A DNA stretch of 64,000 nucleotides from positions 122,955 through 186,954 of the forward strand of contig JAUICG010000004.1 of NCBI GenBank assembly GCA_030427485.1, in the 5' to 3' direction. Positions 4,815 to 45,811 of this stretch are shown here, one piece after another. Source of the stretch: Gammaproteobacteria bacterium. GTDB taxonomy: Bacteria > Pseudomonadota > Gammaproteobacteria > Pseudomonadales > Halieaceae. The notes below the pieces were generated by a model. That model made no database searches and was not told the origin of the DNA. It saw only the letters and a list, made by a program, of their open reading frames with translations. Made by a program: the position numbers and the translations under genes. Position 1 is the stretch's first letter. Each line of letters opens with the position of its first letter.

Positions 4815-4817
4815 TCG

Positions 4818-5483: not shown

Positions 5484-5522
5484 AAACTGCAATACTGAAC
5501 TCGCACGAAAATATTCAAGGAG

Positions 5523-17566: not shown

Positions 17567-17673
17567 TTTTGAGCATGGTATTTTTCATGGTATTACCAAT
17601 TATCATGAAAGTAAGGCTATGATAATAAAAGAGAAAAAAGTCTTATTTATAATCGAGTGGGAGTGACCGGAAT
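17567..17673 (+). repeat. Island repeat element, copy A
   Basis: ttttGAGCATGGTATTTTTCATGGTATT - AT-rich ~55 nt - aagtcTTATTTATAATCGAGTGGGAGTGACCGG. It lies 283 nt upstream of the 1792-aa gene and just right of the IS3 remnant. Confidence 0.9.
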
Positions 17674-28200: not shown

Positions 28201-29116
28201 GGAGCCATGGCAGCTTATTGCCGATTGCTCCCCATCAGCGCTAGCGCGACTGAAGGCCCTTTTGGAAACACTGCGGTTGCTTGCCGGTGAAGCCCATGAG
28301 CGACAGGAGCCTCCGGCAGCAACTTGGGCGGGCCGTGGCAAGGGGGCGCGCGTGGGTAACGCCTTACGGCGGGTGTCGCTTTCAGCTGAGGCTGCAGGAG
28401 AAAAGCGATTGGTTCAGCTTAAGGCAGAAATTGAACGGTCGACGAAAGAGGCGGGGATCAAGGCGGTTTTCCATCTCCGGGTCAACCCAAACGGTATTCT
28501 GCCGTGGCCTCCGGTGGATGTTCTCGCGCTGCTTCCGTCTAGTGACGTTGCAGGTGCAGTGATTGCGCTCAATCAGCAAACGGATCTGTTGCGATCGTTT
28601 GTAGATTCCGCGATGCATCTGACAGTCCTGCCCTTTATCAATGGTGTTGCGTTCCCAGCGCTCGCGAAGTCTGGAATTCGGACTTTTTTACCAGATATTG
28701 AGGGCGCCACAGCTTGGACCAAAAATCTCAATTTGGCGTGCGCGTCATCAGAGACGTCTGGTCTGTTTGGCGAAGTGCTGAGCGTGGCGGCTGAACTCCG
28801 AGCAATGGATCGTCTGGAGCTTGGTGTCGAATCTCGGCCTGAAGCCGAAGTGATCGCACGCCGAAGCCTGGAGGTCTCTTTCGGTGAGAAGAGAGAACAG
28901 CTGGTCCAACAACTGGGCAACTTTGACCGGGATGCTCAAACAGATTTTTTCGAGTTGATCGAGCGTCTGCGAACCGGGGAAATAGATTTTATTGCGGAAG
29001 CGCAGGCAGCGATTGGCGGGGTCTCAACAGAGATTATGGAAACTACAGGTTATTTGACCCTGCTTGTGATCGAATATGAGTGGCAGGCCGAAGTGGTCAA
29101 AAGGGAATCGAAATAG
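25226..29116 (+). CDS. Giant (1296 aa) Cap4/DUF4297-like nuclease + P-loop NTPase + helical C-terminal protein
   Basis: Basic tail MAKKTKARKRRRDSKQ. Then GRGFRYQDAVSVWLAIEIW...IPEGGDDVELRGEETTYIQVKSRRE, which is GF.YQ / E..DD / QxK. Walker A is ALIIGPSGAGKSALMWE (~26120-26143). The Walker-B-like motif is VGFVMDDVG. The start ATG overlaps the abiEii stop (ATGGCTAA). Confidence 0.8.
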   Translation: MAKKTKARKRRRDSKQAPHLAKAASRAGSNAGRGFRYQDAVSVWLAIEIWTGRRAPAILIPEGGDDVELRGEETTYIQVKSRREHLGDYSEGVAAGYIKELWGRSLSSSPQPERLELVLERNVVGFTPLGVQPASRAIEGPIATKLFEFSPSDELLPKTSIQISTSPQEWSISMIVDQLNCSPIAAQMCFAELLVRVGALADANGRLSPGNYRGLSVSDIETSIRDVMAAVDVASIEGAIQEGICEPVDFLTPLNDPNFYLGVDVQPGHIAAGLVSERPKGRFALVQGLEERRAALIIGPSGAGKSALMWEAANALRHTVRWFQIRRLEMTDIPAIRQLIRTFRASQGSPVGFVMDDVGRNSPESWGALLKESMSIPGVIMLGSAREEDVTLIAERARAVEVRADPDGELAERLWKELREAGKTDWAGWREPWKLSDGLLLEYVHILTRGRRMQEVLADQVAARISDPARSLELDILRSASWAGAANAEIDASRLVRTLSVSEADLSSALQRLIHEHLVRSPVPGTLAGLHQLRSKELLRVTHQTMLPTLQTSFERTVASVHAVNLEPLVADALFARRLPVLAVLNSLIVRLENEPDARALASGLRGLGSGRISAGVDEWLETSEARALPRTQVGTAAMFGIAGIDLGSLDIIPEVQAAADRLSRIKGSPEDDPRRLLMERMASSTLSVLIEEADLTSLDEILGALLGVPLSVAVRSALRRIPSNLLNADLHLVGSVMGTLTALDREIAIQWATEVGQEVLFAKIQAETAWAGPVSIEKGDDGVIVHCDLWYVAGSVQGNPHDTVVSLCELILALCPSADIAMSSAITVSGELAGLAELPLVTKRIPRGNLPPPSLPQWNRRWGDLVSRRIAAPSYSDYLARGVAILEVLVPTLAKIFDAHFRGKEAPSGLFETLNSLNAETEALTPPAISSFVASGAGSEDASTAVTKFQNLLHSSSVNLIKGFAKLPEQAGAYIAWLNDLITDVDVEIAEEPWQLIADCSPSALARLKALLETLRLLAGEAHERQEPPAATWAGRGKGARVGNALRRVSLSAEAAGEKRLVQLKAEIERSTKEAGIKAVFHLRVNPNGILPWPPVDVLALLPSSDVAGAVIALNQQTDLLRSFVDSAMHLTVLPFINGVAFPALAKSGIRTFLPDIEGATAWTKNLNLACASSETSGLFGEVLSVAAELRAMDRLELGVESRPEAEVIARRSLEVSFGEKREQLVQQLGNFDRDAQTDFFELIERLRTGEIDFIAEAQAAIGGVSTEIMETTGYLTLLVIEYEWQAEVVKRESK

Positions 29117-29123: not shown

Positions 29124-29230
29124 TTTTTGATCATGGTATTTTTCATGGTATTTCGTTTTTGGTAAAATGTAACTAATTGAAAAATAAGTAATATAAATGG
29201 CTATTTACAATCGAGTGGGAGTGACCGGAA
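29124..29230 (+). repeat. Island repeat element, copy B
   Basis: ttttttGATCATGGTATTTTTCATGGTATT - AT-rich - aatggCTATTTACAATCGAGTGGGAGTGACCGGAA. It starts 8 nt after the 1296-aa gene stop and ends 130 nt upstream of 29360. Confidence 0.9.
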
Positions 29231-30820: not shown

Positions 30821-30872
30821 TCGGATCGATCCTCCTTGAAGAGACGGAGCAAAATACTTCGCATAGTCATGG

Positions 30873-30904
30873 GGCGCAGCCTTGCGCCTTACGTATCATT
30901 TTTT
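30873..30904 (+). terminator. Weak intrinsic-terminator candidate after the SEC-C gene
   Basis: GGCGCA-gcct-TGCGCC hairpin (30873-30888), followed 10 nt later by T6 (30899-30904). The stem is short and the T-tract is displaced. Confidence 0.3.
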
Positions 30905-30956
30905 GAACGAGTGTGGCGTGATTTAGAACCACAAACACGCCAACTAAGTCTTTTTA

Positions 30957-30987
30957 ATGGCGTGATTAAACGCTAAAATCCCGCCAT
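30957..30987. promoter_or_regulatory. Palindrome upstream of fic paralog 1
   Basis: ATGGCGTGA-N13-TCCCGCCAT. It has the same geometry as 42903-42933. A further TGGCGTG...CACGCCA pair lies at 30914-30952. Confidence 0.4.
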
Positions 30988-31059
30988 GACAAAGTGGCAG
31001 GACAGACAGTTTGCACGGCTGAAAGCCGCCCGCCAAGGTGCGGCACAGGGATGTGCCGC

Positions 31060-32205
31060 ATGAAATGGATATGGCAGCAACCCGACTGGCCAGATTTTCG
31101 CTATGACAATCGCGCGCTCAATGATCGGGAACTTGAGTTTCGTCTGAACTCAGAGCGCTTGGCGGGTAGCTTTGATGCACTTCCCATGGCATCTAAACAG
31201 GATGCCACGATCGATTTGATGCTTTCCGAGGCCATCAAAACTAGCGCCATTGAAGGCGAGAATCTGGACAGGGAATCAGTCAGGTCATCGCTACTCTCTT
31301 TGATAACATCGGATACGTTGCGGGACAACTCAGACGTGAAAGCGGCGGGGGCTGCTGCGCTGCTGGTGGACGTTCGCAAGAACTGGCGTTCATCCCTGAC
31401 ACATGACCTGCTGGGCAAGTGGCAATCCATGGCTGTACCGGAACAGCGCTATACGCCTATTTTGCGAGGCGCATATCGCAACGACCCTTCGCCAATGCAA
31501 ATCGTGAGCGGGCCTTATGGCCGGGAAAAGGTTCATTATGAAGCTCCGCCAGCGATCCGGGTGCCTGATGAAATGGCGAGATTTCTCGGCTGGTACAACA
31601 AGACCAGTCCTTCAAGAGATCACAACACGAAATCAGGGATTGCCCGAGCCGGTATTGCCCATCTGTGGTTTGAAATTATTCATCCCTTTGACGATGGTAA
31701 TGGGCGAGTCGGTAGGGCGATCGCTGACCACGCTCTTTCGCAGTTTCTCGGTTATCCGACAACCGCCTGCCTTGCCACTGCGATAGAGGCGGATAAGAAA
31801 ACTTATTACCTGCAACTGGAGAAAGCGAGTCGTACAAGTCTGGACGTTAACACCTGGCTCGATTACTTTGCCGATAGGGTCATCATGGCACAGGAAATTG
31901 CCCGGGAAGAGGTACACTTTGTATTGAGCAAGACACGTTTTTATGAGGTCTATGGTAATCAGTTGAATGACCGGCAGGCCCGGATGGTGTCGCGGGTATT
32001 CGCTGAAGGCCGGAAGGGCTTTGAAGGTGGAATAACGACCAGGAAATATGAAGCGATCACCAAGTGCCCAAACCGAACGGCTAGCCGCGATTTGTCAGAC
32101 CTGGTTGCCAAAGGAATCATCATCCCGCTACCGGGTGGAGGCAGGACGACCCGATATGAGTTGAGCATTGACGAACCGGTCGGTTTTGGTTTCGGGGAGA
32201 GATAA
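31060..32205 (+). CDS. Fic/DOC family protein with DUF4172-like N-terminus and C-terminal wHTH (paralog 1, intact)
   Basis: The start is chosen by alignment with paralog 2 (MKWIWQQPDWPDFRY vs MRWIWQQSDWPGFRY); the track ORF begins at 30994. Fic motif HPFDDGNGRVGRA. N-terminal inhibitory-helix-like TSAIEG, matching (S/T)xxxE(G/N). Confidence 0.9.
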   Translation: MKWIWQQPDWPDFRYDNRALNDRELEFRLNSERLAGSFDALPMASKQDATIDLMLSEAIKTSAIEGENLDRESVRSSLLSLITSDTLRDNSDVKAAGAAALLVDVRKNWRSSLTHDLLGKWQSMAVPEQRYTPILRGAYRNDPSPMQIVSGPYGREKVHYEAPPAIRVPDEMARFLGWYNKTSPSRDHNTKSGIARAGIAHLWFEIIHPFDDGNGRVGRAIADHALSQFLGYPTTACLATAIEADKKTYYLQLEKASRTSLDVNTWLDYFADRVIMAQEIAREEVHFVLSKTRFYEVYGNQLNDRQARMVSRVFAEGRKGFEGGITTRKYEAITKCPNRTASRDLSDLVAKGIIIPLPGGGRTTRYELSIDEPVGFGFGER

Positions 32206-32250
32206 TTTATGGTGTTTACGGGTGACTTTTGTATTGATTAGCCGGACTTT

Positions 32251-32347
32251 CCAAGTATGGTATTTTTCATGGTATTCACCTGTGGCAAGAAATTAAGCTA
32301 TTGGATATAGAAGAGAATAAAGTCTTATTGATAATCGAGTGGAAGTA
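32251..32347 (+). repeat. Island repeat element, copy C
   Basis: ccaagTATGGTATTTTTCATGGTATT - AT-rich - aagtcTTATTGATAATCGAGTGGAAGTA. It lies 46 nt after the fic-1 stop and 380 nt upstream of the RelE-like gene. Confidence 0.85.
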
Positions 32348-32700
32348 GCGCAGATCTGGCACTGGCTTGCACTCGCAGGTATCAAGACGCAGGAAGCTCG
32401 CAAAACCAATCACGTATCCTCATTGCTGTCTGGCAACATCTGGTACTGGCAGGCATCGGCAAGCAGTTAGCACCACTTTTCCATGGTATAGATCATCGTA
32501 CCGCCACACCCACTATCAGCGTCGCTCAGCTATACCATGTCACGCGCGTCGCCCCGTTATGGTATTAGTGGCCAAGTGCTAGCTATACTGACTCGAGTGC
32601 TCCCATGGCCATGAACTCACCCAGATCACTTTCCTCTCTCTGGGCGGCGGAGTTGTTTGCTCTAAAATTTCTAGCTTTCATGTTCAAAGGCTTGTAAAGC

Positions 32701-32726: not shown

Positions 32727-33071
32727 ATGGATGTCGATATGCCTCTTGAAGTGGCTTTTTACCGAACGGAATCGGGAAATGAACCGGTTCGCGCGTGGTT
32801 GCGGGAGCTGAGCAAACAGGACAAAAGGGTAATCGGTGGCGATATTAAAACCGTTCAATATGGCTGGCCTACCGGGATGCCAGTGGTTCGAAAAATGGAG
32901 TCCGGGCTATGGGAAGTCAGATGTCGGCTTGATCAACGTATTGCTCGAATTCTGTTTACAGTAAAGGGTGAAAAGATGATTTTGCTGCATGGCTTCATCA
33001 AGAAATCCCAGAAGACACCACAAACCGATTTGCAGTTGGCTAAAGACCGGAAAGCCAACCTGGAGAAGTGA
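32727..33071 (+). CDS. RelE/ParE-superfamily toxin (Gp49/HigB-like, DUF891-type)
   Basis: 114 aa. FYRTESGNEPVRAWLRELSKQDKRVIGGDIKTVQYGWPTGMPVVRKMESGLWEVRCRL..RIARILFTVKGEKMILLHGFIKKSQKTP is a typical phage Gp49-like toxin sequence. Confidence 0.85.
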   Translation: MDVDMPLEVAFYRTESGNEPVRAWLRELSKQDKRVIGGDIKTVQYGWPTGMPVVRKMESGLWEVRCRLDQRIARILFTVKGEKMILLHGFIKKSQKTPQTDLQLAKDRKANLEK

Positions 33072-33072
33072 C

Positions 33073-33354
33073 ATGAGCAAACACATTGGTAGTAACTTCG
33101 ATGACTTTCTGGAAGAGGAAGGTGTGCTTGCGGAAGCGGAAGCTATCGCAGTTAAGCGTGTGCTTGCCTTTCAACTCGAGGAATTGATGAAAGCGCATAA
33201 ACTCAACAAGACACAACTGGCCAGGCGGATGAATACCAGCCGTTCCGCATTGGAGCGGTTGCTGGATCCCGAGAATCCTTCGGTGACGCTGCTGACCCTG
33301 GAGCGCGCGGCCAGAGCGCTGGGCAAGAACATAAGGATTGAGCTCGCAGTTTGA
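33073..33354 (+). CDS. XRE-family HTH antitoxin
   Basis: The in-frame ATG at 33073 lies 2 nt after the toxin stop. The product MSKHIGSNFDDFLEEEG...LNKTQLARRMNTSRSALERLLDPENPSVTLLTLERAARALGKNIRIEL contains an HTH_XRE. Confidence 0.85.
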   Translation: MSKHIGSNFDDFLEEEGVLAEAEAIAVKRVLAFQLEELMKAHKLNKTQLARRMNTSRSALERLLDPENPSVTLLTLERAARALGKNIRIELAV

Positions 33355-33445: not shown

Positions 33446-34906
33446 GTGAATTTTTCCGGCTGGCAGGCCAGGTTTCGCCGTTTACAGGATGAACACGCGA
33501 CCTGGAAGTTGTTGCGCGCGGACAACGCCCCCATCATTCTCGCCTTCATTGCCGATCTGTTCGCGGAGGAGAATGAAGTACCCTTCGCGCGGGCACGCAT
33601 CGCTCTGGATGCGGAACTGGAACGCGGCCGGGAATTGGGTTACTGGCAAAGCGAAAGCGGGGCAGGCATCTACCTGAACCAGTGGATACGCGCGGGCTGG
33701 CTGCGAGAAATGGACGACATGCTGAGTAAAACTGACGCCAGTGAAACCGCGTTACGATTTTGCCGGACACTCGACGAACCGACTGCCGGTACCTCCGCCT
33801 CCCATCTTCGAATCGTACAGGAAGCGGTGCGAGATTTTGCTGTTGCGGTCAACCCGGATCTTGACGAGCGGGTCGCCCAGCTTGAGCAACGCCAGCAGGA
33901 AATCCAGCACAGCATAGACGATCTGCGTGCGGGCGCGAGCGTGGAGCTCAGTGAAACCGAACAACGTGAACGCATACGCGAGATTTACCAGTTGGCGTCG
34001 GTGCTGACCGGTGATTTTCGCCGTGTGGAGGATGAGATTCGACGCATTGACAAGGATTTAAGAATCCAGATCATCGAAGGTGATTCCACCCGCGGGAACG
34101 TGTTGCTCGAACTGATGGAGAAGGAGATTCTGCTAGCGAATACTGATGCGGGCAGTGCATTCGAAGGATTTTTTCAGCTGTTGTGTGACCAGAACCGCTC
34201 GACCGAATTCAGCGATCAGTTACGTGGTATCCTCAGCCTGCCGGTGGCCCATCACCTCAATCCCGCCCAGCGCCAGTTCCTTGTCCGGTTGATGCGCGAA
34301 TTGTCACGCGAGAGCGAGCGCGTGTTCCGCATCCGTCGGCGTACCGAAGAGGGCTTGCGCGGGTATATCGAAAGTGGCGTGGCTCAGGAAAACCGCGCGG
34401 TGACGCGCCTGTTGTCCGAGCTGGAACGCAGCGCCATCGCCCTACGCGAAAACGGCTGTGATTTGAAGACACGAACCCGGCTGGAACTGCAGGTTGGCGT
34501 ACCCGAAATTCGATCTCCCGAAAGCATGAATCTGCGACTGCCAGACGAAAACCTGGATACCTCTGGCGTCGAGGAGCAGGCCAATCGCCGCGAGCCGAGT
34601 AAGGAAATGCTCGACAGCCTGGAGGCGGTACAGATCCGCCGAGTCGCCGAGCGTACCCTGGCGGCCCTGCGCCGATATGGTCCCATGACGATTTCCGCGT
34701 TATCCCGATACCAACCGCTACAGGCGGGGCTGGAAGAACTGGTTGCCTGTATGAGGGTGGCCCGTGCCGTTCACGCGACGGACCTCAATACCACCGAACT
34801 GGTCGAAGTCCACGATAAACAGGGTTCGCGGATTATGGCCTCGATTCCCGGGCTCCTGATGAGCGCCGAATTGTTTCCCGCCAACATCGACGAGCTGACG
34901 CTGTAG
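33446..34906 (+). CDS. jetA: Wadjet JetA (DUF3375 / MksB-like kleisin)
   Basis: 486 aa with a GTG start. It is the first of four tightly packed genes. The N-terminus ...WKLLRADNAPIILAFIADLF... and the length fit DUF3375. Confidence 0.8.
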   Translation: MNFSGWQARFRRLQDEHATWKLLRADNAPIILAFIADLFAEENEVPFARARIALDAELERGRELGYWQSESGAGIYLNQWIRAGWLREMDDMLSKTDASETALRFCRTLDEPTAGTSASHLRIVQEAVRDFAVAVNPDLDERVAQLEQRQQEIQHSIDDLRAGASVELSETEQRERIREIYQLASVLTGDFRRVEDEIRRIDKDLRIQIIEGDSTRGNVLLELMEKEILLANTDAGSAFEGFFQLLCDQNRSTEFSDQLRGILSLPVAHHLNPAQRQFLVRLMRELSRESERVFRIRRRTEEGLRGYIESGVAQENRAVTRLLSELERSAIALRENGCDLKTRTRLELQVGVPEIRSPESMNLRLPDENLDTSGVEEQANRREPSKEMLDSLEAVQIRRVAERTLAALRRYGPMTISALSRYQPLQAGLEELVACMRVARAVHATDLNTTELVEVHDKQGSRIMASIPGLLMSAELFPANIDELTL

Positions 34907-34909
34907 CCT

Positions 34910-35677
34910 ATGAGCGAAAAGGACTTCTTCGACGATCTGATCAAGGCGCAGTCGACTGTATCGGTCGAGGCTGATCCACTAAACATGGATGAGGACAACG
35001 GTATTGAGCAGTCGTCAGCGGATGCACCGTCCTCCGCGCCAGCGATCGATGATCAGCCGGCACCCTTGACACACGAAGCCCGCCGCGCGCTGGTGTATCT
35101 GTTGCGCCAGGGTTCGGCGCTGGCACGGCAAAAAAGCGAGATATTCGAACTGACTTGCCGATACCAGGATGCCTTGCGCAACCACCTCGAGAATATGTAC
35201 CTGCGACTGGTCATCGATGAGCGCTACGGCGTCGCGTTTATCGCCAACGCGCAAAACCCCAATGACGGGGACGACGATGGCGAGAGCGTCAGGCTGATCA
35301 GTCGTCGAACGCTGACCCTTTACGATACACTGCTGACCCTGGTGTTGCGCAAGTATTTTCAGGACCGTGAAACTCAGGGTGAGCAGAAGATTAATATCGA
35401 TATCGAAACGGTAGAAGCAGGCCTGAGCCCGTTTTTGCCTTTGACCAACAGCACTCGCTCGGACCGCAAACAACTGGTCACTTCGCTGAAACGCATGATC
35501 GAAAAGCGCATCCTGGTAGTTGTTCGCGGCAGTGAAGAACGCTTTGAGATTTCGCCACTGATTCGTCACGTGGTATCTGCCGAATTTCTTCAGCATATGT
35601 TAAATGAGTATCAACGCCTGGCTGACGAACAATCGGGTGAAGAACAGATACGAGACGATCCACAGGACGATGACTGA
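34910..35677 (+). CDS. jetB: Wadjet JetB (DUF4194 / MksE-like)
   Basis: 255 aa with an acidic N- and C-terminus. The core ...ARRALVYLLRQGSALARQKSEIFELTCRYQDALRNHLENMYLRLVIDERYGVAFI fits DUF4194. It starts 4 nt after jetA. Confidence 0.8.
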   Translation: MSEKDFFDDLIKAQSTVSVEADPLNMDEDNGIEQSSADAPSSAPAIDDQPAPLTHEARRALVYLLRQGSALARQKSEIFELTCRYQDALRNHLENMYLRLVIDERYGVAFIANAQNPNDGDDDGESVRLISRRTLTLYDTLLTLVLRKYFQDRETQGEQKINIDIETVEAGLSPFLPLTNSTRSDRKQLVTSLKRMIEKRILVVVRGSEERFEISPLIRHVVSAEFLQHMLNEYQRLADEQSGEEQIRDDPQDDD

Positions 35678-38600
35678 ATCGACGAACTACAGCCGCGATT
35701 TTTTTGCCATAGGGCAGATTCGTCTCAGCGAGTTGTCCGTGTACAACTGGGGGTCGTTTCACGGTCTGCACAGCGCCCGCATCGACCCGGAGGGCACCTT
35801 GGTCACCGGCGATAACGGTTCTGGAAAATCGACCTATATCGACGCCCTGATGGCGCTGTTACTGCCCGCGGGCAAGGCGAGCTTCAATGTCGCGGCCGCG
35901 CAAGGCGACAAGGCGGATCGCTCTTTGCTGTCGTACATGCGCGGCAGTTTCGGTTCCGCGCACGATGGCGCTGCCACGCGCGTCAAGAGCAAGCGCGAGG
36001 GCGCAGTGGTCACCGCGCTGAGGGCCGCTTACCGCGCCGATGACGGCAGCGAGCTGACACTGCTGGCGATGTTCTGGACCACCCAGGCGAGCAATGCGCT
36101 GGCGGACGTCAAACGTGTGTACGCGGTGGCGCGTAGGAATGTCGGCTTGAAGTCCGTTCTCGATGCCTTCGGCGAGGGTAATGCGCGGGCGCTCAAACAA
36201 TGGCTGCGCGCCGATCAGGCGATTACCTGCTGCGACGAGAATTTTGCCGAATACCAGGAGTTGTATCGCAAGCTGCTGATGATGGAGAACCGCAACGCGC
36301 CGGCCTTGCTGTCACGTGCCCTCGGCTTGAAAAAGATCGATGACCTGACCGCGCTGATCCGCGAACTGGTGCTGGAGCCCAGTGGCGTCCGGGACGATGC
36401 ACGTAAGGTGGTTGCCGAGTTCGCCGACCTGGTGGCGATACATGCGCAGTTACTCGACGCTCGGCAGCAGCAGGCACACCTCGCCAGATTGCCGGAGTTG
36501 AAAGACGTGATCGACAAAGCGGAAACCGAAATCCGGTTGTTGAGCGAGGAAAAGCAGGGCCTGCCGGTGTATTTCGGCGAGTTGCTGGTCGCTTTGTTGT
36601 CCGAGCGGATCGCAGGGTTGGACGCGCAGCGGCAGGATCTGAAACTCGACATCAAACAGCGGGAACAGGCAAGGGAGGATGCGAACCGATTGGTTGAACG
36701 TCGGCACGAAGTGTATCTGCAGCTCGGCGGCGATCGGGTCGAATCGCTCAACAAGGAGCTGGAGCACACCCGGGAACGACTGAAGTTCGTCACTACTGAG
36801 TCATCCCGCTATCAACGAGCTGCCCGTGAACTGGAATGGTCCGATGCCCTGGAAGCGTCAGTGTTCCAGCAAAGTCAGGCATCGGCGGAGCAGGGCTTGG
36901 TATCCATCGAGAACGATACCAAGGCAAGTCAGGACCGCTTCGCTGAAGTCAGCGCGCAGTTGAGCGCAACGCAAGCGGAGATCAGGACAACCACCGATGA
37001 GATCGCCGAAATCACCGCACGGCCCGGTTCGAATATTCATATCGCCTATCAGCGCTTGCGTGACGAGCTGGTCGACTCGCTCGGCCTGCCTGCCGGGGAC
37101 TGCCTGTTCATCGGCGAATTACTCGATGTCAGGGACGAAGAGCGGTCGTGGCAGGGGGCCATCGAACGCGCCCTGGGTGGTTTGCGTACCACACTTGCAG
37201 TGCCTGAACAAAGTTTCTCGATGGTCACCAAATGGCTGAATGCGCGGCATACCGGCCTGCATGTTCGGGTTCAGGTGGTGCGGGAATCGAAGGTCAAAGC
37301 GCCGATGCCCGAGTTTCGCCCCGATGGTTTTCTGCGCAAGCTGGAGTGGCGGCAGCATCGTTATCGGGAGTGGCTGAAACAGCATTTGCAGCGCTTTGAC
37401 CTGTCCTGCGTTGCGGATACCGCGACGTTGGATGCCACACCCTTTTCCATGACGCGAGAAGGCCTGATCCACAAGGAAAAAGGGCGTTTCGAGAAAAAGG
37501 ATCTGGCGCGCATCGACGATCGTAACGAATGGCAACTTGGATTTTCCAATGCGTCGCGTTTGAAACTGTTGAACGAGCACCTGGCGAAACTGAATACACG
37601 TCTGACTGTGGAAAATGGCCAGGTGGACCAGGCGCGTGCGGACTGGGATCGATTTGGCAAACGCAAAAACCTGTTGCAACGGATCAGGGAAACAGAGTGG
37701 GAGAGTATCGACGCGCCTTACTGGAACGGCCGGCTGGCGCAATTGGACGACGAACTGAAGCGACTGCAATCCTCCAGTGGCGACCTGGAGGAGGCTCGCA
37801 AGGGGTGGGAGGCTGCCAAACAGGCGTTGCAGGATATATCGGATGCGATCATCGAACTGGCCCGTCAGCGCGGCGCCATCGAAAGTGAGCTGGCCGCTGC
37901 CCGAGCCCGCAAAAGCGAGGCGGTGGCAGAAGCGGAAAAAGGGCTTTCCGATACCTGCCGTGCAGCGCTCGTCGGGCGGGTCAGAACGATTTTAATCGAG
38001 GATCTCGAACGGGTATCCGCGATCATGTTCGACATCGAACGCGACCTGGACGGATTGCTGGCCCGGGCGCGTAACGACCAGAGTCAGGCGGAAAACTCCG
38101 CAATCGGTGTCATGTCCTCGTTTCGAGGTAAGGATCGCTGGCAGTCGTTGACCGCGGACTGGCCCGCGGGTCTGGCCGGTCTGACGGATTTCCTCGATCA
38201 CCTCGAGCGACTGGTCAGCGAGGGCTTGCCAGCGCTGGTAGAGCAATTCGTCGAACGGCTCAACAGACATGCCACACAGTCACTGGCACGGATCAAATCA
38301 CGCCTGGACAGCGAGCGCGAAGACATACTCGAGCGCATCGATGTCATCAACCAGGTCCTGGCGCGTACCGAGTTCAGACAGGGCTCTTACCTGAAGCTGG
38401 GATCGCGCCGGGAAAAATACCCGCATGTGCAGGATTTCGAGAAGCAGTTGAATCTGGTGCTGAGCCAGGTTACCAGCGATGATCATGAGGGACGTTTCCA
38501 GCAACTTGAAACGGTGGTGGCGATACTGGAAAAGGCCAGCACAGTCGGCACGGCCAGCACGCTCGAAAGCCTGCGTCTGCTCGATCCCCGCTATCAACTT

Positions 38601-39083
38601 TCGTTCTTTGCCGAGGAAGTCGGCTTCGAAGACGGCGAAACGCGTGACGTGCTGGATTCCTCCAGTGGAAAATCCGGCGGCGAAAAGGAATCCTTCGCCG
38701 GCACCATCGTCGCCGCGAGCCTGGCTTACGTGCTGACCCCCGAGGGACATGACCGGCCGGTATATTGTACCGTGTTCCTCGACGAGGCTTTTTCCAACAC
38801 CGCCGAGGCGGTCAGTCGCCGGGTATTGAAGGTCTTCAAGGCCCTGCATATCCATGTGAACCTGATTACCCCGTACAAGAACCTGAATCTGGCGCGGGAT
38901 TCGGCCCGTGCCTTATTGATTGCAGAACGCGATGCGGAGCGGCACGAAAGCCATCTGTGCGAAATCACCTGGGAGGAGGTGGACCGGCGTCTGGGTGAGC
39001 AGCGGGAGGTGAAACTGGCAGATGATCTGCTGCGGCTGGATATCGAAATTGAAAACCGTCCCGGAATGACCAGCGATGTCTGA
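35670..39083 (+). CDS. jetC: Wadjet JetC (SMC/MksF-like ABC ATPase)
   Basis: The ATG at 35670 overlaps the jetB stop (ATGACTGA); the track ORF starts at 35604. Walker A is VTGDNGSGKSTYIDAL. A long coiled-coil middle follows. The C-terminal signature/Walker B region is SSGKSGGEKESFAG...YCTVFLDEAFS. Confidence 0.9.
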   Translation: MTESTNYSRDFFAIGQIRLSELSVYNWGSFHGLHSARIDPEGTLVTGDNGSGKSTYIDALMALLLPAGKASFNVAAAQGDKADRSLLSYMRGSFGSAHDGAATRVKSKREGAVVTALRAAYRADDGSELTLLAMFWTTQASNALADVKRVYAVARRNVGLKSVLDAFGEGNARALKQWLRADQAITCCDENFAEYQELYRKLLMMENRNAPALLSRALGLKKIDDLTALIRELVLEPSGVRDDARKVVAEFADLVAIHAQLLDARQQQAHLARLPELKDVIDKAETEIRLLSEEKQGLPVYFGELLVALLSERIAGLDAQRQDLKLDIKQREQAREDANRLVERRHEVYLQLGGDRVESLNKELEHTRERLKFVTTESSRYQRAARELEWSDALEASVFQQSQASAEQGLVSIENDTKASQDRFAEVSAQLSATQAEIRTTTDEIAEITARPGSNIHIAYQRLRDELVDSLGLPAGDCLFIGELLDVRDEERSWQGAIERALGGLRTTLAVPEQSFSMVTKWLNARHTGLHVRVQVVRESKVKAPMPEFRPDGFLRKLEWRQHRYREWLKQHLQRFDLSCVADTATLDATPFSMTREGLIHKEKGRFEKKDLARIDDRNEWQLGFSNASRLKLLNEHLAKLNTRLTVENGQVDQARADWDRFGKRKNLLQRIRETEWESIDAPYWNGRLAQLDDELKRLQSSSGDLEEARKGWEAAKQALQDISDAIIELARQRGAIESELAAARARKSEAVAEAEKGLSDTCRAALVGRVRTILIEDLERVSAIMFDIERDLDGLLARARNDQSQAENSAIGVMSSFRGKDRWQSLTADWPAGLAGLTDFLDHLERLVSEGLPALVEQFVERLNRHATQSLARIKSRLDSEREDILERIDVINQVLARTEFRQGSYLKLGSRREKYPHVQDFEKQLNLVLSQVTSDDHEGRFQQLETVVAILEKASTVGTASTLESLRLLDPRYQLSFFAEEVGFEDGETRDVLDSSSGKSGGEKESFAGTIVAASLAYVLTPEGHDRPVYCTVFLDEAFSNTAEAVSRRVLKVFKALHIHVNLITPYKNLNLARDSARALLIAERDAERHESHLCEITWEEVDRRLGEQREVKLADDLLRLDIEIENRPGMTSDV

Positions 39084-40290
39084 GCCGGAAGCTGCCACGT
39101 GGGGCATCATGCCGGAACAGGCCGCGGCTCAGGCACGCAAAAGGTACTGGGACAATCGCCCGGTTTTGAAAGCCTTGATGACCGGTGAGCGCGGTTTCCC
39201 GCTACATATCCCGCTGAAGCCGCCCAACGCCAGACAACCCTTGGAGAATCTGGCTCATCTGCGGGATTGGATCGAAGTCTGGAAAAAGTTCACCATGCCG
39301 GACCTTCTGCACTGGAAAACGGTCAGTTTTCGCCAATTGGGCCAACAGCGACTGCCCGCGCGAATCACCATCGGCAACTTCCAGCAGCTCACGCAACTCT
39401 GCGGTCCGTCCGCGAACGCGCAATCCGCGCGATGGCAGGCGAATATGCTCCCGCTGCTACGGCAGTATCCACATGAGCGGGTCTATCCTGTTCTAGTCAG
39501 GCACATCGAGGCCGTTGAAAGTCTTGGTAGGAATGATGCTGAATTACTCACCCATGTATTGCCGCAGTTGCATCGAGGGCTCGGCGCGGGTGGTTACCTG
39601 CGTGCGCTACCATTGCAGGGTGCCGATACCAAGTTTGTCGAAACATGTTCGGGCCTGATCGAAGCACTACTGGATGCGGTGCATGATGGAGAGATCACAG
39701 CGTCCGGCGGCCTGTATTCCTGGCTGGATTGCATCCACCTCCCCAGAGGGCTTGCCCAGGGCGTACCGGTGGTACGTCCTCTGAGTGCGGATACGCGGCA
39801 TGCTTATCAGGGTTTGTCGCTGTTTCAGTTGAGCGCGGAATTGCTGCGGCAACATGCACTGCCGGCTGCCAACATCCTGGTGGTGGAGAATCTTCAATCG
39901 GGTCTGGCCTTGCCCGATCTTGACGATACCATTGCCGTGATCGGCGGGGGGCGGAACGTTAGCTGGATGAATGCGTCCTGGTTGACGGCGAAACGTGTCG
40001 GTTACTGGGGCGATATCGACAGCTGGGGGCTATCCATATTGAGTGATGCTCGCACCAGTCTGGCCTCAGTGGAGCCATTGATGATGGATGTTACTACGCT
40101 AAATGCGCACGAAGAGCGGATGGTGCAGGAACCCGAACCGTTGAACACGCTACCCGCACAGTTGACCGGTCAGGAACAGCAATTGTTCCTTGATCTCGCA
40201 GCCGGCCGGTTCCTTTCTACCCGTTTGGAACAGGAAAGGATTTCATCCGATTTTATCAGCGCTGCACTCGAAACCTGGTTAGTATCCTAG
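39076..40290 (+). CDS. jetD: Wadjet JetD (DUF3322 + DUF2220 Toprim-like nuclease subunit)
   Basis: 404 aa. It overlaps the jetC stop by 8 nt. The C-terminal NILVVENLQSGLALP...IGGGRNVSW...VGYWGDIDSWGLSILSDAR is the Toprim/DUF2220 signature. Confidence 0.88.
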   Translation: MSEPEAATWGIMPEQAAAQARKRYWDNRPVLKALMTGERGFPLHIPLKPPNARQPLENLAHLRDWIEVWKKFTMPDLLHWKTVSFRQLGQQRLPARITIGNFQQLTQLCGPSANAQSARWQANMLPLLRQYPHERVYPVLVRHIEAVESLGRNDAELLTHVLPQLHRGLGAGGYLRALPLQGADTKFVETCSGLIEALLDAVHDGEITASGGLYSWLDCIHLPRGLAQGVPVVRPLSADTRHAYQGLSLFQLSAELLRQHALPAANILVVENLQSGLALPDLDDTIAVIGGGRNVSWMNASWLTAKRVGYWGDIDSWGLSILSDARTSLASVEPLMMDVTTLNAHEERMVQEPEPLNTLPAQLTGQEQQLFLDLAAGRFLSTRLEQERISSDFISAALETWLVS

Positions 40291-40317: not shown

Positions 40318-41961
40318 TCAATCCTGCCGGTGATCCGATACCAGAAGGAGTTGGAAGGGATTCTGATGGCCGTCTTGTCTCTCAGGGGTAGCTGTAAGGC
40401 CGAGAACGTATCGTGCTCGAACTTCGTTCAGTACCATCTCAACGCGCGGCGCGGATACGTGGTGGCATTCGTCAACGATTACATGGCCGTATTCCTGAAT
40501 AATCTGAGAAACAGTGTTTTCTTTCTTGTTTATCAAACTTTGATATGTCGCTATATCAATGTTGCCGGTGGGCTTTTTCTTTCCCCCGCGGATGACGCCA
40601 ATCTCCGCTTCTGGTAAAAACGAATGCAGTCTAGCCTGCCATTGAGCAAGTAATTGGCGACTGTGTACAAGAATGAGCGTGTTTACTTTGCGCTTGGTGA
40701 TCATTCCGATAGCCGTCACTGTTTTCCCGAACGCTGTAGGTGCATGCAGGATTCCTGCATCGTACTTGCTCATTTCCTTTATGGCGGCTTGTTGATTTTT
40801 CCTCAAAGCTAATAACGGCTTCATACTTGAAAGTTTTATGCCCAACTCACGCTTGTCATCGATTTGAACGTCTATATTGTTCTCTTTCAATAGCGCGAGC
40901 GCATCATCCAAACACCCTCTGGGCAATGCCAGGTAGCCACGTTCAATGCGAGCACAGGAAATGAATCGAGGAATGCCGTGGGTCAAAAAGCGAAGCGCCT
41001 GTGTCTTAAAGAAAACCGGATTTGAAAAGCTGGCTAAACGCCTTAATCTCGCTAAAAGAGCACTTGGTAGTGCCTTTGCCTCAAAGTAGATGTGGTTGGC
41101 CAGCGTTATCGTAATCTGTTGTGGCGGGCTGTCCAGAATCAGAGGTTTGGGTTTGGCTGTCACCTCCCAGGGCGGCAGGATATCGGTAACGTCCTGCTTT
41201 GAAATCAGGCTTTCATTGGGGGAAATCTTTGAAAGAAGTTGATTTAGCTCCTGTCTGGAAAGTTTCTTTATCTGTGAGAGGTGTTGCCATTGATCCTTAA
41301 TGACATTCAAATCTGCATCGACAGAAAAGCTATTGCCCGTGTGTCTGGCTTCGCGCTGTAGTGGTAATGCAATCAAATTGCCAAATCCTCCTTCAGGCAG
41401 AATATCCTGATTAGGAAATAATCTGTCATAGGAGTTGAAAGACAGGTTCGGATAAATCTACATCGCTTTTACTTCGTCTTGCCAGCTTCCTTTATCAAAA
41501 TCGGCGGCCAACAAATAGCATGTGTTGTTGTGGAGCAATGGATACAGGCCCACAACCTGTTGTCCCGCCAGGTGGCGATAGATGATTTGATCGGTTGATT
41601 CGCTGAACTGGCGGTGTGTGCAGTCAAGACATTTGATCCTCGGTTTGTTGCAGACACCCTGAACCCACTCATTGTCACAGGCTACGGAATAGCCACTTCG
41701 TCCTCGCTGGTTTTCCCAGCGATTGGCAAAAATATCAGTGCGCCCACGAAACAGATTTCTGAAAACTGCTATCTTTTGTTCCGGAGAAAAGGAATCTGAA
41801 ATGGGCGGTGCTGGCCTCGATTCTTGCAGTTCTGCTCTGAGCGTGATGAGCTGCTACTTTTCTCGTTCAAGCTCAACCAGCCTCGAATCGATAACGGAGA
41901 GATCAGGAAATTTATCTCCGCTGCCGCGTAGCTTCTCTTCGGTTGGAGAGCGATCAGGCAT
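40318..41961 (-). pseudogene. Degraded archaeo-eukaryotic-primase (AEP) + SF2 DEAD/DEAH helicase fusion gene (TOTE-conflict-system-like)
   Basis: One frame of 548 codons carries two internal TAG stops (41856-41854 and 41460-41458). The N-terminal part reads ...EQKIAVFRNLFRGRTDIFANRWENQRGRSGYSVACDNEWVQGVCNKPRIKCLDCTHRQF...GLYPLLHNNTCYLLAADFDKGSW, then SYDRLFPNQDILPEGGFGNLIALPLQ. Helicase motifs are HAPTAFGKTV and VIVDECHH...LTATPERQDG. The frame then ends, so helicase motifs IV-VI are absent. Confidence 0.75.
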
Positions 41962-42322
41962 GAACCTGAGGTGGTTTGATCAGCGACTCAGCCGGAATAC
42001 CCAAACCTTCGTGGAGCTTCCAGATCATCTTTAAAGTCAGCGAGCGCTTGTGATTTAGGATCTCGTAAACGCGATTACTTTTGCCGATCATCGGCTCCAG
42101 GTCTTTTACGGTTAAGCCCTTGCGTTCCATCTCGAACTTGATTGCCTCAACAGGATCGGGCAAATCCATCGGGAAATGCTTGGCTTCATAAGCCTCAATA
42201 AGCGTGACCATGACATCCAGCTTTTCGCCTTCTGGAGTGTCTGGTTCAGCCATCATCAGGCTTTCAACTTCATTTAATGCCGCGCGGTAGTCGGCATCAG
42301 TTTTAATGGGTTTGATGTCCAT
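41954..42322 (-). CDS. higA: HigA-type HTH antitoxin
   Basis: 122 aa. ...DADYRAALNEVESLM...EAIKFEMERKGLTVKDLEPMIGKSNRVYEILNHKRSLTLKMIWKLHEGLGIPAESLI contains an XRE HTH. Its stop overlaps the pseudogene ATG (ATGCCTGA). Confidence 0.85.
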   Translation of the reverse strand: MDIKPIKTDADYRAALNEVESLMMAEPDTPEGEKLDVMVTLIEAYEAKHFPMDLPDPVEAIKFEMERKGLTVKDLEPMIGKSNRVYEILNHKRSLTLKMIWKLHEGLGIPAESLIKPPQVHA

Positions 42323-42339
42323 GATTGATCCTCCGGCAG

Positions 42340-42642
42340 TTAAATGGTTTGTACATCAATCTTGTCGTACTGCATATGGGTGCCAATAAAGCGGATGTAG
42401 ACAACTCGGTAGGCATAGTTGATCCACACGACAAGTCGATACTTGTTCCCCGCGATATTGAAAACCACTCGGCCATCTTTAAGGATGCTGGCATTTCCAA
42501 AGTCCTGCTTTACCTCGGCAGGCGAACTCCAGTCGGCTTGCAAGGCATGACGGTACCAGGCCAAAGTTGGCTCCTTTGCATCCTGATATTCCGGGTTCTC
42601 TTCCCAGAAGGCTTTCAGGGTCGACAGTGCGATGATTCTCAT
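42340..42642 (-). CDS. higB: HigB-type mRNA-interferase toxin
   Basis: The in-frame ATG at 42642 gives MRIIALSTLKAFWEENPEYQDAKEPTLAWYRHALQADWSSPAEVKQDFGNASILKDGRVVFNIAGNKYRLVVWINYAYRVVYIRFIGTHMQYDKIDV, the classic HigB_toxin family sequence. Confidence 0.88.
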   Translation of the reverse strand: MRIIALSTLKAFWEENPEYQDAKEPTLAWYRHALQADWSSPAEVKQDFGNASILKDGRVVFNIAGNKYRLVVWINYAYRVVYIRFIGTHMQYDKIDVQTI

Positions 42643-42805
42643 GTGTCCGATATAATAGTCCCAAAATGGGACTATAGCAACAGCTTTTTTGGTCAAGCGC
42701 AGATTTGGATAACACCATCAACCTGTATATCCTCTTGAAATAGCGTTCGAATGAGACATCGAGTGCTTACGAATTTGTGGAAAAAATGAGCTCATTTCAA
42801 GAAAC

Positions 42806-42826
42806 TTCTGAGCATGGTATTTTTCA
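42806..42826 (+). repeat. Island repeat element, copy E (21-nt stub)
   Basis: TTCTGAGCATGGTATTTTTCA is identical to the first 21 nt of copy D (44121-44141). Similarity ends exactly between the two ATGGTAT units. Confidence 0.8.
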
Positions 42827-42902
42827 AACGACGTTCAGATGCCAGTATTTTATCCAGGCTGGCGTTATTGCCGGCCATAATCGCGCCATATATATGTATT
42901 AT

Positions 42903-42933
42903 ATGGCGTGAATAAGTACTAGAATCACGCCAT
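42903..42933. promoter_or_regulatory. Palindrome overlapping the fic paralog 2 start
   Basis: ATGGCGTGA-N13-TCACGCCAT with 9-bp perfect arms. The right arm ends in ATG 42932. Confidence 0.4.
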
Positions 42934-44076
42934 GAGATGGATATGGCAACAATCTGATTGGCCTGGTTTCCGCTACGACGAGCTTCCTCTCGAACACAGG
43001 GAACTTGAGTTTCGCCTGAACTCAGAGCGTCTGGCGGGTAGCTTTGATGCACTTCCTCAAGCGTCCCAGGCGGAGGCCATGATCGATTTGATGCTTTCCG
43101 AGGCCATCAAAACCAGCGCCATTGAGGGCGAGAATCTGGACAGAGAGTCGGTCAGGTCATCGCTGCTCTCATTAATTACCTCGGATACGCTGCCGGATAA
43201 CTCAGACCAGAAAGCGGCGGGAGCTGCATCGTTGCTGGTGGACGTTCGCAAGAACTGGCAAACATCCCTGTCGCATGACCTGCTGGGCAAGTGGCAGTCC
43301 ATGGCTATCCCGGAACAGCGCTACACGCCTGTTGTGAGAGGTGCATACCGCAATGATCCTTCACCAATGCAAATCGTGAGCGGGCCTTACGGAAGCGAAA
43401 AGGTTCACTATGAGGCCCCACCAGCGGCCCGGGTGCCTGATGAAATGGTGAAGTTTATCGAATGGTACAACCAATCCAGTCCCTTGAATGGGGATAAGAC
43501 AATACCCGGGATTGCCCGAGCAGGTATTGCTCATCTCTGGTTCGAAGTGATTCACCCCTTCGATGATGGTAATGGTCGGGTTGGCAGGGCGATCGCTGAC
43601 CATGCACTTTCGCAGTCGCTCGGCTATCCAACCACGGCTTGTCTGGCTACAGCAATAGAGGGGGAAAAAAATCCTATTATCTGCAACTGGAGAAAGCGAG
43701 TCGTGGAAGCCAGGATATTAACGCCTGGCTGGATTATTTCGCAGACACAATCATCAAGGCACAGGAAATTGCCAGAGATGAAGTGAATTTTGTACTGGCT
43801 AAGACACGTTTCTACGAAGCTTACGGCGATCATCTGAATGAACGGCAGGCGAAGATGGTATCTCGGGTGTTCGCTGAAGGACGAACAGGCTTTGAAGGCG
43901 GAATAACGACCAGAAAATATGAAGTCATCACCAGGTGCCCCAATCGAACAGCCAGCCGTGATCTTTCTGATCTGGTTGCCAAAGGTATAATCATACCGTT
44001 ACCAGGTGGTGGTAGAACAACGCGATATGAGTTGACGATTGTTAAACCGGTTCGGTCTGGTCCGACGAAGAAGTAA
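42932..44076 (+). pseudogene. Fic/DOC family protein paralog 2, frameshifted in a G5A7 tract
   Basis: Track ORFs 42932-43786 and 43639-44076 are the two halves. Most residues are identical to paralog 1 by eye, including HPFDDGNGRVGRA. At 43660-43671 (GGGGGAAAAAAA), adding one A restores ...IEGEKKSYYLQLEKA..., colinear with ...IEADKKTYYLQLEKA... in paralog 1. Confidence 0.85.
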
Positions 44077-44118
44077 GTTACCCTGTGGGTCGTTGATTTT
44101 TTGTGTCGATTAGCAGGA

Positions 44119-44226
44119 TTTTCTGAGCATGGTATTTTTCATGGTATTACGATTTAGCAGAGTAATAAGCCACTGTATCTAAGAGACAAAAATGGCCTAT
44201 TTACAATCGAGCGGGAGCGAGCGGCA
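44119..44226 (+). repeat. Island repeat element, copy D
   Basis: ttTTCTGAGCATGGTATTTTTCATGGTATT - AT-rich - aatggCCTATTTACAATCGAGCGGGAGCGAGCGG. It lies 43 nt after the fic-2 stop and 146 nt upstream of the TPR-Fic gene. Confidence 0.9.
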
Positions 44227-44371: not shown

Positions 44372-45811
44372 ATGAACGCACCGGCTCAGAACGAGCAGAA
44401 GTGGCTGCGCTGTATGAGTTCCGGCAGGAAGAGCTTCGAGGGACGGAAGCTCGACAAGGCCCTCAATTCGTTCCGCAAAGCGGTCAGGATTCTCCCGCAG
44501 CGGAAGGAGGGCTGGGTCAACCTGGGTTCCACGCTGCTGGAGGCGAAGCGTTACCAGGAGGCCGCCCGCGCGCTGGAGAGGGCGATATCCATCGACAACC
44601 GGTTGATGCTCGCCCACCTGCTGCTGGGTGACTGCCTGCGCATGTCGGGTAAGCGGCCGGAAGCCAGTGCCTGCTACCGCAACGCCCTGGCCCTGCAACG
44701 CTCACCCTTATCCCTTAACAGGATGGCCTGTGCGTTGCGGGAGGACAAAAAACTCGATCTGGCGGAGGGGCTCTATCGGGAAGCGCTTTCCATGGATTCC
44801 GGTTTCACGCTGGCCAGGGTCAACCTGGCCACTCTGGAGGTAGAGAGGTGTAACACCGACAGGGCCAGGGAGCATTTGAACGCACTGGCGGGTGCCATGC
44901 TCGCGCCCGCGGAGCAGCAGGAAGTCGATTCCGCCAACTGGGCACTGACAGAATTCCAGCGGCTGGATACGCCCATCAACACCCTGGTACAGGAGGGCGA
45001 CAGCTCACTACTGGAGCACGCCCTGCGGGCGAGCCCCGCGATGGGAGTCGACCAGGAACTGCTTGCTGCTATTCAGCGCTATGCGCGGTCGGCGCGCCGC
45101 CTGTCCCATGGAGAAGCGATCTCCGGGGGTGTCGTGCTGGATGACTGGCCGGAGATCGAGGCAGCCTTCCTTATTCCCCTTGTGAGCGAGTTCGAGGAAT
45201 ACCGCCTGCTTCGGAGTCACCGGGAGGCGGGCAGGCTTCCCGGCGAGGACCGGCAAAAACTGGAGCAGTGGGTACAGACGATAACGACCGCAAGGGCCTG
45301 CCGGGATGACATGCTCGATCCGCTCAAGGCGGAACTGCAGCTCAGGTACTGGCATGCCCTGGCCTGCAAAGACAGCAGCGAGTTGCAGCCCGGGCACTTC
45401 AAGTACGTCGTGAACTGGATTCCCACGAATCCGAACCAGCGCCGGGTTTCGCCGGCGCAGGCGTCCGGAACCTTCCGTCACTTTATCGAGGCGATATACG
45501 GCAAGCTGGAACCTGGCTACGGACGCGCCGCCACGGTGTACATGGCGCTTGTCGACCTGCACCTGTTCTCCGACGGCAACGGACGCATTGCGCGGAACTG
45601 GCTGAACCGGGAACTGGAATGGGCGGGGCTGGTACCCTGCCTGTTCCGCAAGGGGCAAAAAACAAGCGATGGCTTCAAGCAGGCGATATTCGCGGTGCGC
45701 GGCGCCGGTGGAGACCTGTCCCCACTGATTGAGTTCATAAAAGCGTGCCAGCGGGAAGCCCTGGCATGCTGCGAGGCGCTCCGGCAGGACTCCGGGCCGC
45801 AGTCTCGTTGA
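44372..45811 (+). CDS. TPR-repeat / Fic-domain fusion protein
   Basis: 479 aa. N-terminal TPRs (...ALNSFRKAVRILPQRKEGWVNLGSTLLEAKRYQEAARALERAISIDN...). C-terminal Fic motif DLHLFSDGNGRIARNWLN, matching HxFxxGNGRxxR. Confidence 0.8.
   Translation: MNAPAQNEQKWLRCMSSGRKSFEGRKLDKALNSFRKAVRILPQRKEGWVNLGSTLLEAKRYQEAARALERAISIDNRLMLAHLLLGDCLRMSGKRPEASACYRNALALQRSPLSLNRMACALREDKKLDLAEGLYREALSMDSGFTLARVNLATLEVERCNTDRAREHLNALAGAMLAPAEQQEVDSANWALTEFQRLDTPINTLVQEGDSSLLEHALRASPAMGVDQELLAAIQRYARSARRLSHGEAISGGVVLDDWPEIEAAFLIPLVSEFEEYRLLRSHREAGRLPGEDRQKLEQWVQTITTARACRDDMLDPLKAELQLRYWHALACKDSSELQPGHFKYVVNWIPTNPNQRRVSPAQASGTFRHFIEAIYGKLEPGYGRAATVYMALVDLHLFSDGNGRIARNWLNRELEWAGLVPCLFRKGQKTSDGFKQAIFAVRGAGGDLSPLIEFIKACQREALACCEALRQDSGPQSR

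Follow-up and report, generated by a model that had tools for sequence, protein, structure and literature searches.

What placed two identical 21-bp sequences on either side of a broken fic gene in a gammaproteobacterium of the Halieaceae? The locus lies within a 64,000-nt stretch of contig JAUICG010000004.1 (assembly GCA_030427485.1, positions 122,955 to 186,954), the whole of which is called the window below. Here TTCTGAGCATGGTATTTTTCA occurs exactly at 42806-42826 and again at 44121-44141, both on the + strand, with no occurrence expected in shuffled sequence; the left copy continues as ...TTTTTCA|AACGACG and the right one as ...TTTTTCA|TGGTATT, and the 1.3 kb between them holds a single gene for a DUF4172+Fic protein (fic2), recovered by Pfam searches in two open reading frames (ORFs; 42932-43786 and 43639-44076). 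A sequence-only reading of the window had correctly noted that the repeats bracket this frameshifted gene and nothing else, and took them for attL and attR of a single cassette. Our comparisons point elsewhere: the 21-mer is very probably the first 21 nt of the P arm of the attachment (att) sites at which GIsul2-family tyrosine integrases act, their target being the guaA 3' end. Its left copy is, with comparably good confidence, a deletion scar left where island modules fused, a product of ordinary island decay and not half of a working attL/attR pair.

The 21-mer is the initial part of an element of about 100 nt, of which the window contains four full copies (starting at 17567, 29125, 32249 and 44121) and a truncated one; at the first three of these positions the 21-mer recurs with 1-3 mismatches. 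Alignment of the full copies reveals a common layout in which two CATGGTATT units with a 12-bp period are followed by about 60 variable, AT-rich nucleotides and then by CTATTTAyAATCGAGTGGGAGTGA, with 80 nt from the start of the motif to the core in all four. In E1 and E2 the terminal part reads ACA ATC GAG TGG GAG TGA, i.e. TIEWE-stop, the C-terminus of GMP synthase, and thus mimics the 3' end of guaA. The four copies are:

17567..17668, + strand: E1, a P arm with a perfect core GAGTGGGA (17655-17662), reading ACAATCGAGTGGGAGTGA and carrying the TIEWE-stop mimic; 84% (86/102) identical to GIsul2 attR.
29125..29226, + strand: E2, a P arm with a perfect core (29213-29220), after which the sequence resembles the CR2 left end (terIS) in the alignment to GIsul2 attLR/CR2.
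32249..32350, + strand: E3, a P arm with the core GAGTGGAA (32337-32344), downstream of the paralog fic1, from repeat and core scans.
44077..44222, + strand: E4, the fic unit's own P arm and att site with a 3' flank of the 'gattagc' signature; it includes the right 21-mer (44121-44141), CATGGTATT units at 44128-44136 and 44140-44148, and a degenerate core GAGCGGGA at 44209-44216; 82% (84/102) identical to the GIsul2 attR arm plus core.

Exact cores are found only at 17655 and 29213, those of E3 and E4 having one mismatch each, and in E4 the stop of the guaA mimic is changed from TGA to CGA. Across the window copies the identity to the GIsul2 attR arm and core is 74-84% (78-86 identical positions over 102-105 nt). 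The element matches no Rfam family at gathering score and no tRNA in tRNA scans; the 16-mer ATGGTATTTTTCATGG had no match in the literature searched, and the literature matches to the core octamer were all irrelevant.

Several other identities were considered for the element. A sigma-54 promoter/operator cassette was rejected, as GG-N10-GG does not fit the -12 GC of sigma-54, and so was a sigma-70 version, with no sigma-70-like promoter predicted in the scar or E4. An integron attC site and a transposon end with target duplication were dropped upon finding the GIsul2 match and the guaA mimic. With respect to target-site duplication, there is no transposase gene in 42827-44120 (terminal inverted repeats were not specifically searched), and the repeat recurs as a conserved motif at 64 unrelated sites among the matches listed in our survey.

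The experimental work on GIsul2 (Front Microbiol 2022, PMC9376610) provides the frame for this identification. Its integrase catalyzes recombination at 19-bp att sites with GAGTGGGA as their common core, namely attL, attLR (upstream of rcr2), attR (304 bp upstream of sul2) and attB (at the guaA 3' end). Integration requires no more than this integrase, which also excises and integrates, in trans, the CR2-sul2 unit that lacks an integrase of its own. According to the citation in that paper, attL and attR were first defined by Harmer et al. 2017. We observed that one version of the 19-mer ATGGTATTTTTCATGGTAT is base-for-base identical across many genera at about 215 bp upstream of sul2, in the vicinity of an IS91-family (ISCR2) transposase, a resolvase and ars genes, and that the flanks of this version diverge directly after ...ACAATAGAGTGGGA (...AGAGTGGGA); this copy is the right end of GIsul2. 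The 19-mer of the window is identical to it, the window elements are homologous to the attR flank, and E1-E4 each have the 19-bp site with its core, exact in E1 and E2 and with one mismatch in E3 and E4; the left 21-mer has no core within 100 nt.

A survey of the 19-mer in other genomes (individual loci and contigs are given L numbers) recovered at least 119 loci with at least 153 sites, and the figures that follow refer to the matches listed. Most hosts belong to the Gamma-, Beta- and Alphaproteobacteria, with Pseudomonas, Stenotrophomonas, Vibrio and Escherichia among them. The exact 21-mer is present at 64 of the 153 sites and is thus the family consensus, so that the identity of the two window copies reflects conservation and not duplication upon insertion. 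Sites of the P type (94 of 153) have the core 80-81 nt after the motif in 89 cases. In the 37 P'-type sites the tandem motif is followed by an inverted ATACCAT and this by a fourth ATGGTAT; a core lies upstream in 28 of them, 81 nt before the motif in 23 of these 28. At least 20 loci have a genuine guaA end (...KPPATIEWE*) preceding the P' site, which makes them attL sites, and in about 10 loci a P' site follows a P site to form a P-core-P' junction of 161-164 bp. In the E. coli int-alpA-repA island at guaA (L131) the ATGGTAT motifs lie between the core and the int start codon.

The family also includes an annotated E. coli case of the same unit type, namely a cassette of 3.9 kb located between guaA and yfgI in strain TB06052 (L130, 9040-13050), which has two DUF262 genes and no integrase and is bounded by a P' arm with four motifs, a P arm with two motifs and GAGTGGGA cores. 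Other P' regions that follow GIsul2-type cores (L126, 1-440 on the reverse strand; L003; L015; L117) contain different repeats, of CTATCG and CTGGCA types, and precede DUF4102-type integrases 54-57% identical to that of the E. coli island. This suggests that several integrase subfamilies may share one core while using different arm motifs.

In the attP site of phage lambda the core lies between P and P' arms with short repeats, and tandem integration creates P-O-P' junctions. The family examined here likewise has several short arm repeats at fixed distances from the core, and from their position and conservation we infer that the CATGGTATT repeats are arm-type integrase-binding sites; the likeness to lambda is one of layout only, without any sequence relation. 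A different function for these repeats, which we regard as improbable though deserving of attention, would be as operators of a regulator or of an excisionase (an AlpA-type recombination directionality factor, RDF) or as an outward promoter for the cargo, the 21-mer then being a duplicated regulatory region. Sites of RDFs, for example those of lambda Xis, also commonly have direct repeats in tandem on a single arm, every full copy lies upstream of an operon, and one motif in L131 is located just before the int start codon. Set against this are the constant motif-core distance on both arms and in both orientations irrespective of the cargo, the transcription of sul2, the nearest gene in GIsul2, away from the site, and the lack of a predicted sigma-70-like promoter noted above. 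As this alternative concerns what binds the repeats, it leaves the interpretation of the scar unchanged.

The features that meet at the left repeat are as follows:

40361..42821, - strand: remnant of a TOTE-HigA-HigB unit, with HigA at 41954-42322 and HigB at 42340-42642 (Pfam; 97-98% identity to L126).
42795..42826, + strand: junction scar containing the left 21-mer (42806-42826), delimited by the homology limits against L126, MAFFT alignment and comparison with L122.
42827..42931, + strand: fic2 leader with the GTTCAGATGCC box (42833-42843) and palindromes at 42860-42888 and 42903-42933, a candidate operator; the leader is conserved ahead of fic in L009, L069, L103, L122 and others.
42932..44076, + strand: fic2, coding for DUF4172 + Fic (HPFDDGNGR), from Pfam, alignment to fic1 and to the L122 Fic, and frame analysis.

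The scar combines the left flank of the TOTE-HigAB P arm, a single ATGGTAT (42814-42820) and the flank of the fic unit distal to its fourth P' motif, and there is no GAGTGGGA-like core 80 nt downstream of it. Its limits are set from both sides. The 97-98% identity of 40361-42821 to L126 stops inside ATGGTATT at 42821; from 42814 onwards the window aligns without gaps to the fourth P' motif and the distal flank (GTTCAGATGCC and the TGGCGT palindromes) upstream of fic in L009, L069, L103 and others, and the MAFFT alignment places the ATGGTAT at 42814-42820 upon the fourth motif of fic-upstream P' arms in at least 10 genomes. The left junction is not a misassembly, as an independent Logan assembly from this sample (L124) spans it.

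The two sides of this junction exist in relatives as complete, separate units. The fic gene stands between two cores in L103 (in the order guaA, core, P', fic, P, core) and in L049 (where a P arm takes the place of guaA), the unit thus delimited measuring 1552-1553 bp and having, in relatives, four ATGGTAT motifs on its P' arm; the proposal of the sequence-only reading that fic with its flank is the mobile unit is borne out by this recurrence. No integrases were found among the ORFs adjoining the fic units in L062, L103 and L049. The TOTE-HigA-HigB genes form a separate core-to-core unit in L126 and L127, with the P arm after HigB, and in L126 the next gene beyond the core is an integrase. Compared to the L126 unit, which has a core at both sides, the window remnant lacks its own core and P' arm, its left end (core, P' and the TOTE C-terminus) being deleted directly after jetD. 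The TOTE-type archaeo-eukaryotic primase/helicase gene is itself a pseudogene (40361-41950, - strand), lacking about 227 C-terminal codons and 137 nt internally relative to the 809-aa L126 gene, and it is linked to an identical HigBA pair, which is met in at least eight different contexts.

A further comparison is with L122, another genome, which has the same order of HigA-HigB and fic, with an intact Fic protein (381 aa). Its junction comprises the P-left flank, the 19-mer, the P'-right flank and all four ATGGTAT motifs, again without a core; the window lacks 75 bp of it, starting right after ...ATGGTATTTTTCA, and the right site of L122 is 12 bp shorter. As the left site is 75 bp longer in L122, the edge of the 21-mer is specific to this window. 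Core-less P-left/P'-right hybrids with different flanks are found at seven further loci among the matches listed, and in L122, L126 and L127 one 12-bp unit of the arm repeats has been lost, which indicates that these repeats are deletion-prone.

These observations bear directly upon the mechanism first proposed for the locus, according to which a circular fic cassette entered a pre-existing element through a crossover in the 12-nt spacer between the ATGGTAT units, duplicating 21 bp as attL and attR. What can be said for it is that exact direct repeats surround one gene, that fic recurs as a unit, and that the predicted 'empty site', HigB followed by a single intact element, does occur in L126, L127 and L129. 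Yet the experimentally defined crossover of the family is the GAGTGGGA core, 80 nt away; no core is present to the left of fic2, the joint maps inside ATGGTATT, and L122 has the same arrangement with repeats of different extent. Moreover, the 21-mer is the conserved end of a family element found at 64 other sites among those listed, and complete P-core-P'-fic intermediates exist in L049, L120 and L010. We consequently give this mechanism hardly any credence: the part of the proposal that assigns the repeats to a site-specific recombination system stands, but the crossover in the spacer does not.

Homologous recombination offers another route to the same structure, in which arm repeats recombined to give a fic circle, and this circle was then taken into the P arm of the HigAB unit through a RecA-type exchange in the shared ATGGTAT or 19-mer. 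The arms have 19-20 identical bp in common, and the final order (P-left, joint, P'-right, fic, P, core) is formally compatible with such an event. However, it needs an extra arm-to-arm excision step, and a normal excised circle would leave an additional core and P' arm downstream of fic, which are absent. It also predicts reciprocal hybrids (P'-left, 19-mer, P-right), of which there are none among the 153 sites listed, against the seven core-less P-left/P'-right hybrids and L122. This route therefore appears quite unlikely, even if somewhat less so than a crossover in the spacer.

The deletion-scar interpretation is favored over both, though certain points weigh against it or against the assignment to GIsul2-type sites. 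Firstly, the 21/21 identity runs 4-6 nt past the ATGGTATT joint, which we attribute to a T-rich flank of the fourth motif such as that seen in L069; alternatively, the joint might lie after TTTTTCA. Secondly, the window and L122 have only about 83% identity in their fic parts, yet their HigA proteins are identical, so that the two loci are mosaic and do not form a simple ancestor-descendant pair. Thirdly, the arm sites go unmentioned in the GIsul2 paper (PMC9376610). Finally, the window contains neither guaA nor an integrase homolog: tblastn with the E. coli guaA-island integrase gave a best E of 2.9 in the window, and no ORF of the island had a Phage_integrase Pfam hit. A leftward extension of 10 kb through the response-regulator gene also lacks guaA and an integrase, but that contig is from another sample and maybe another genome.

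The history that best accommodates these data would begin with integrase-less modules, bounded by att sites, that stack in tandem downstream of guaA-type sites and are excised and integrated in trans, as shown for the CR2-sul2 unit; the window between 17.5 and 44.2 kb may be such an array. In this array fic2 would formerly have stood as a separate unit of 1.55 kb (core, P', fic, P, core) that had inserted at the core ending the TOTE-HigAB unit. The resulting P-core-P' junction then appears to have collapsed by deletion between short direct repeats of the two arms. Probably the first deletion was from 19-mer to 19-mer, as in L122, and a second, from ATGGTAT to ATGGTAT, would have left the single ATGGTAT, the two steps together removing the core. 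The left 21-mer would thus be the scar, and the right one the intact P arm of the fic unit. Since the left core is gone, fic2 alone would no longer be excisable by an integrase, and to judge from the sites that remain, any movement would require an integrase supplied in trans and acting at the cores, not at the 21-mers.

The paralog fic1 bears a second trace of the same decay, and the next unit beyond E3 retains a P' arm:

30862..32205, + strand: fic1, intact, 381 aa (gene 31060-32205), with a truncated P' arm (from alignments).
32351..32565, + strand: long-type P' arm of the next unit, with a CTGGCA spacer, ATGGTAT at 32483-32489, inverted ATACCAT at 32532-32538 and ATGGTAT at 32559-32565.

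The sole surviving motif of the fic1 P' arm is a degenerate fourth motif, GTCATGGGG, within 30862-30874. As the fic1 P' arm is truncated, the fic2 junction collapsed and the left end of the HigAB unit deleted, the segment 32337-44209 fuses at least three former units. The longer P' variant with its CTGGCA-rich spacer, similar to the CR2 left end, follows the cores at 29213 and 32337, three ATGGTAT motifs trailing it at the latter, and the layout of 32351..32565 is the same as that of the stretch from core to int in the E. coli guaA island L131.

At the DNA level the identity of the two fic genes is about 80% over a stretch that runs from the leader to beyond the 3' flank and reaches into the element, in agreement with the homology of their downstream flanks claimed earlier. 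Compared to fic1 and the intact L122 protein, frame analysis shows that the fic2 ORF is split by loss of 1 nt in the A7 run at 43665-43671; this is either a pseudogene or a homopolymer sequencing error in that run, and the exact 284-aa fic2 ORF has no match in public contigs. The palindromes of the fic leader, TGGCGTTATT/AATCGCGCCA and ATGGCGTGAAT/AATCACGCCAT (window 42860-42933), the second of which overlaps the start codon, are retained as a pair in the fic leaders of L009, L010, L069, L103, L110, L120 and L122, and are a candidate autoregulatory operator. Leaders of the fic1 type have a 74-nt insert with an upstream ORF (uORF) of 25 codons (MTKWQDRQFARLKAARQGAAQGCAA; window 30986-31063), the stop of which overlaps the fic ATG (ATGA); the insert is also present in L010, L078, L110 and L120, and is lacking in leaders of the fic2 type. 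A third Fic-domain gene of the window, with an architecture unrelated to that of fic1 and fic2, codes for a TPR + Fic protein (44372-45811) and is the first gene past the last att core, in GC-rich DNA. A public Logan contig (L001) carrying the downstream TPR-Fic gene starts exactly at the right 21-mer (window 44121); as the repeat family thus breaks short-read assemblies, the copy number and order of units in draft genomes are to be read with care.

The full element copies lie between gene modules of a defense island, namely NACHT/STAND NTPases with AbiE; UPF0149/SEC-C with fic1; a Gp49/HTH toxin-antitoxin pair with Wadjet JetABCD, the TOTE remnant and HigBA; and fic2. The GC fraction is about 0.5 up to 44.2 kb and 0.6-0.65 thereafter. 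The remaining genes of these modules are:

17956-23334: NACHT-STAND.
23457-24140: DUF6088/AbiEi.
24137-24553 and 24823-25233: AbiEii, split in two ORFs.
25226-29116: second STAND ATPase.
32727-33354: Gp49/HTH toxin-antitoxin pair.
33446-40290: complete Wadjet jetABCD.

Further to the left, positions 1-12541 are occupied by a copper/silver resistance cluster (CopA-type P-type ATPase, cupredoxin, CusCBA-type RND pump and a two-component response regulator) with a GC fraction of about 0.5, possibly another acquired island, and insertion sequence (rve) fragments lie at 16705-17440 between this cluster and E1.

The closest known system is GIsul2/CR2-sul2 (PMC9376610), with which the window shares the 19-bp att site, the GAGTGGGA core mimicking the guaA 3' end, sequences resembling the attLR/CR2 left end after the cores at 29213 and 32337, and att-bounded units that lack an integrase and presumably moved in trans. 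The window differs in its cargo, which consists of defense, toxin-antitoxin and Fic genes without sul2 or ISCR2, in having no integrase or guaA, in the mutation of two of its four cores, in the deletion of internal junctions and in the conserved arm repeats, which are undescribed there. The elements termed CIMEs, of the ICESt1 family (Pavlovic et al. 2004, reviewed in PMC5704250), are presented in these sources as having lost their integration genes while keeping att sites, and as undergoing tandem accretion. As in the window, they lie in tandem at one att site and are remodelled by internal deletions, and the array has the appearance of CIME-like units that accreted and are now in decay. It belongs, however, to a different phylum, integrase family and target gene, and many guaA-type units are tiny (1.5-4 kb) and recur across more than 100 species. 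PIMEs (bioRxiv 10.64898/2026.01.12.698999) are guaA-integrated mobilizable elements with immune systems that encode int, alpA, repA and an oriT or relaxase; shared features are the attB next to guaA, the int-alpA family and the defense cargo, and an E. coli island of this type has ATGGTAT motifs between core and int, whereas the window array lacks int, alpA, repA and oriT/relaxase. Integrons likewise hold arrays of cassettes, self-contained or without a promoter, that depend for their movement on a tyrosine recombinase encoded elsewhere, but the units described here show no likeness to the attC hairpin or IntI and instead carry double-stranded, lambda-type arms with a gene-end mimic.

The fic2 arrangement is thus explained by known island biology, namely GIsul2-family att arms, tandem accretion and junction decay. 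The att site, the core, the trans-mobilized integrase-less units and the defense-carrying guaA islands are already published; the literature searched yielded neither the conserved arm repeats nor the wide occurrence of small units bounded by cores, of which the fic cassette is one. For the island itself, the comparison indicates which boundaries an integrase could still use, only the cores at 17655 and 29213 being perfect. For the family, sequences long discussed as ISCR2/CR2 ends would belong to a much wider family of att arms, which also mobilizes defense, toxin-antitoxin and Fic modules in environmental Proteobacteria and E. coli, and CATGGTATT would be a conserved candidate arm-binding motif for the integrases that spread sul2 and other resistance genes. 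This raises the tentative possibility, more doubtful than the assignments made above, of an integron-like platform downstream of guaA in more than 100 proteobacterial species, with integrase-less units of 1.5-12 kb that have a lambda-type attP, lie in tandem and are shuffled in trans by integrases of the GIsul2/PIME family. If this were so, each unit would have two ATGGTAT sites on its P arm and four on its P' arm, 80-81 nt from the GAGTGGGA core, the 1.55-kb fic unit would be among the commonest cassettes, and arm-to-arm deletions would progressively lock the cassettes together.

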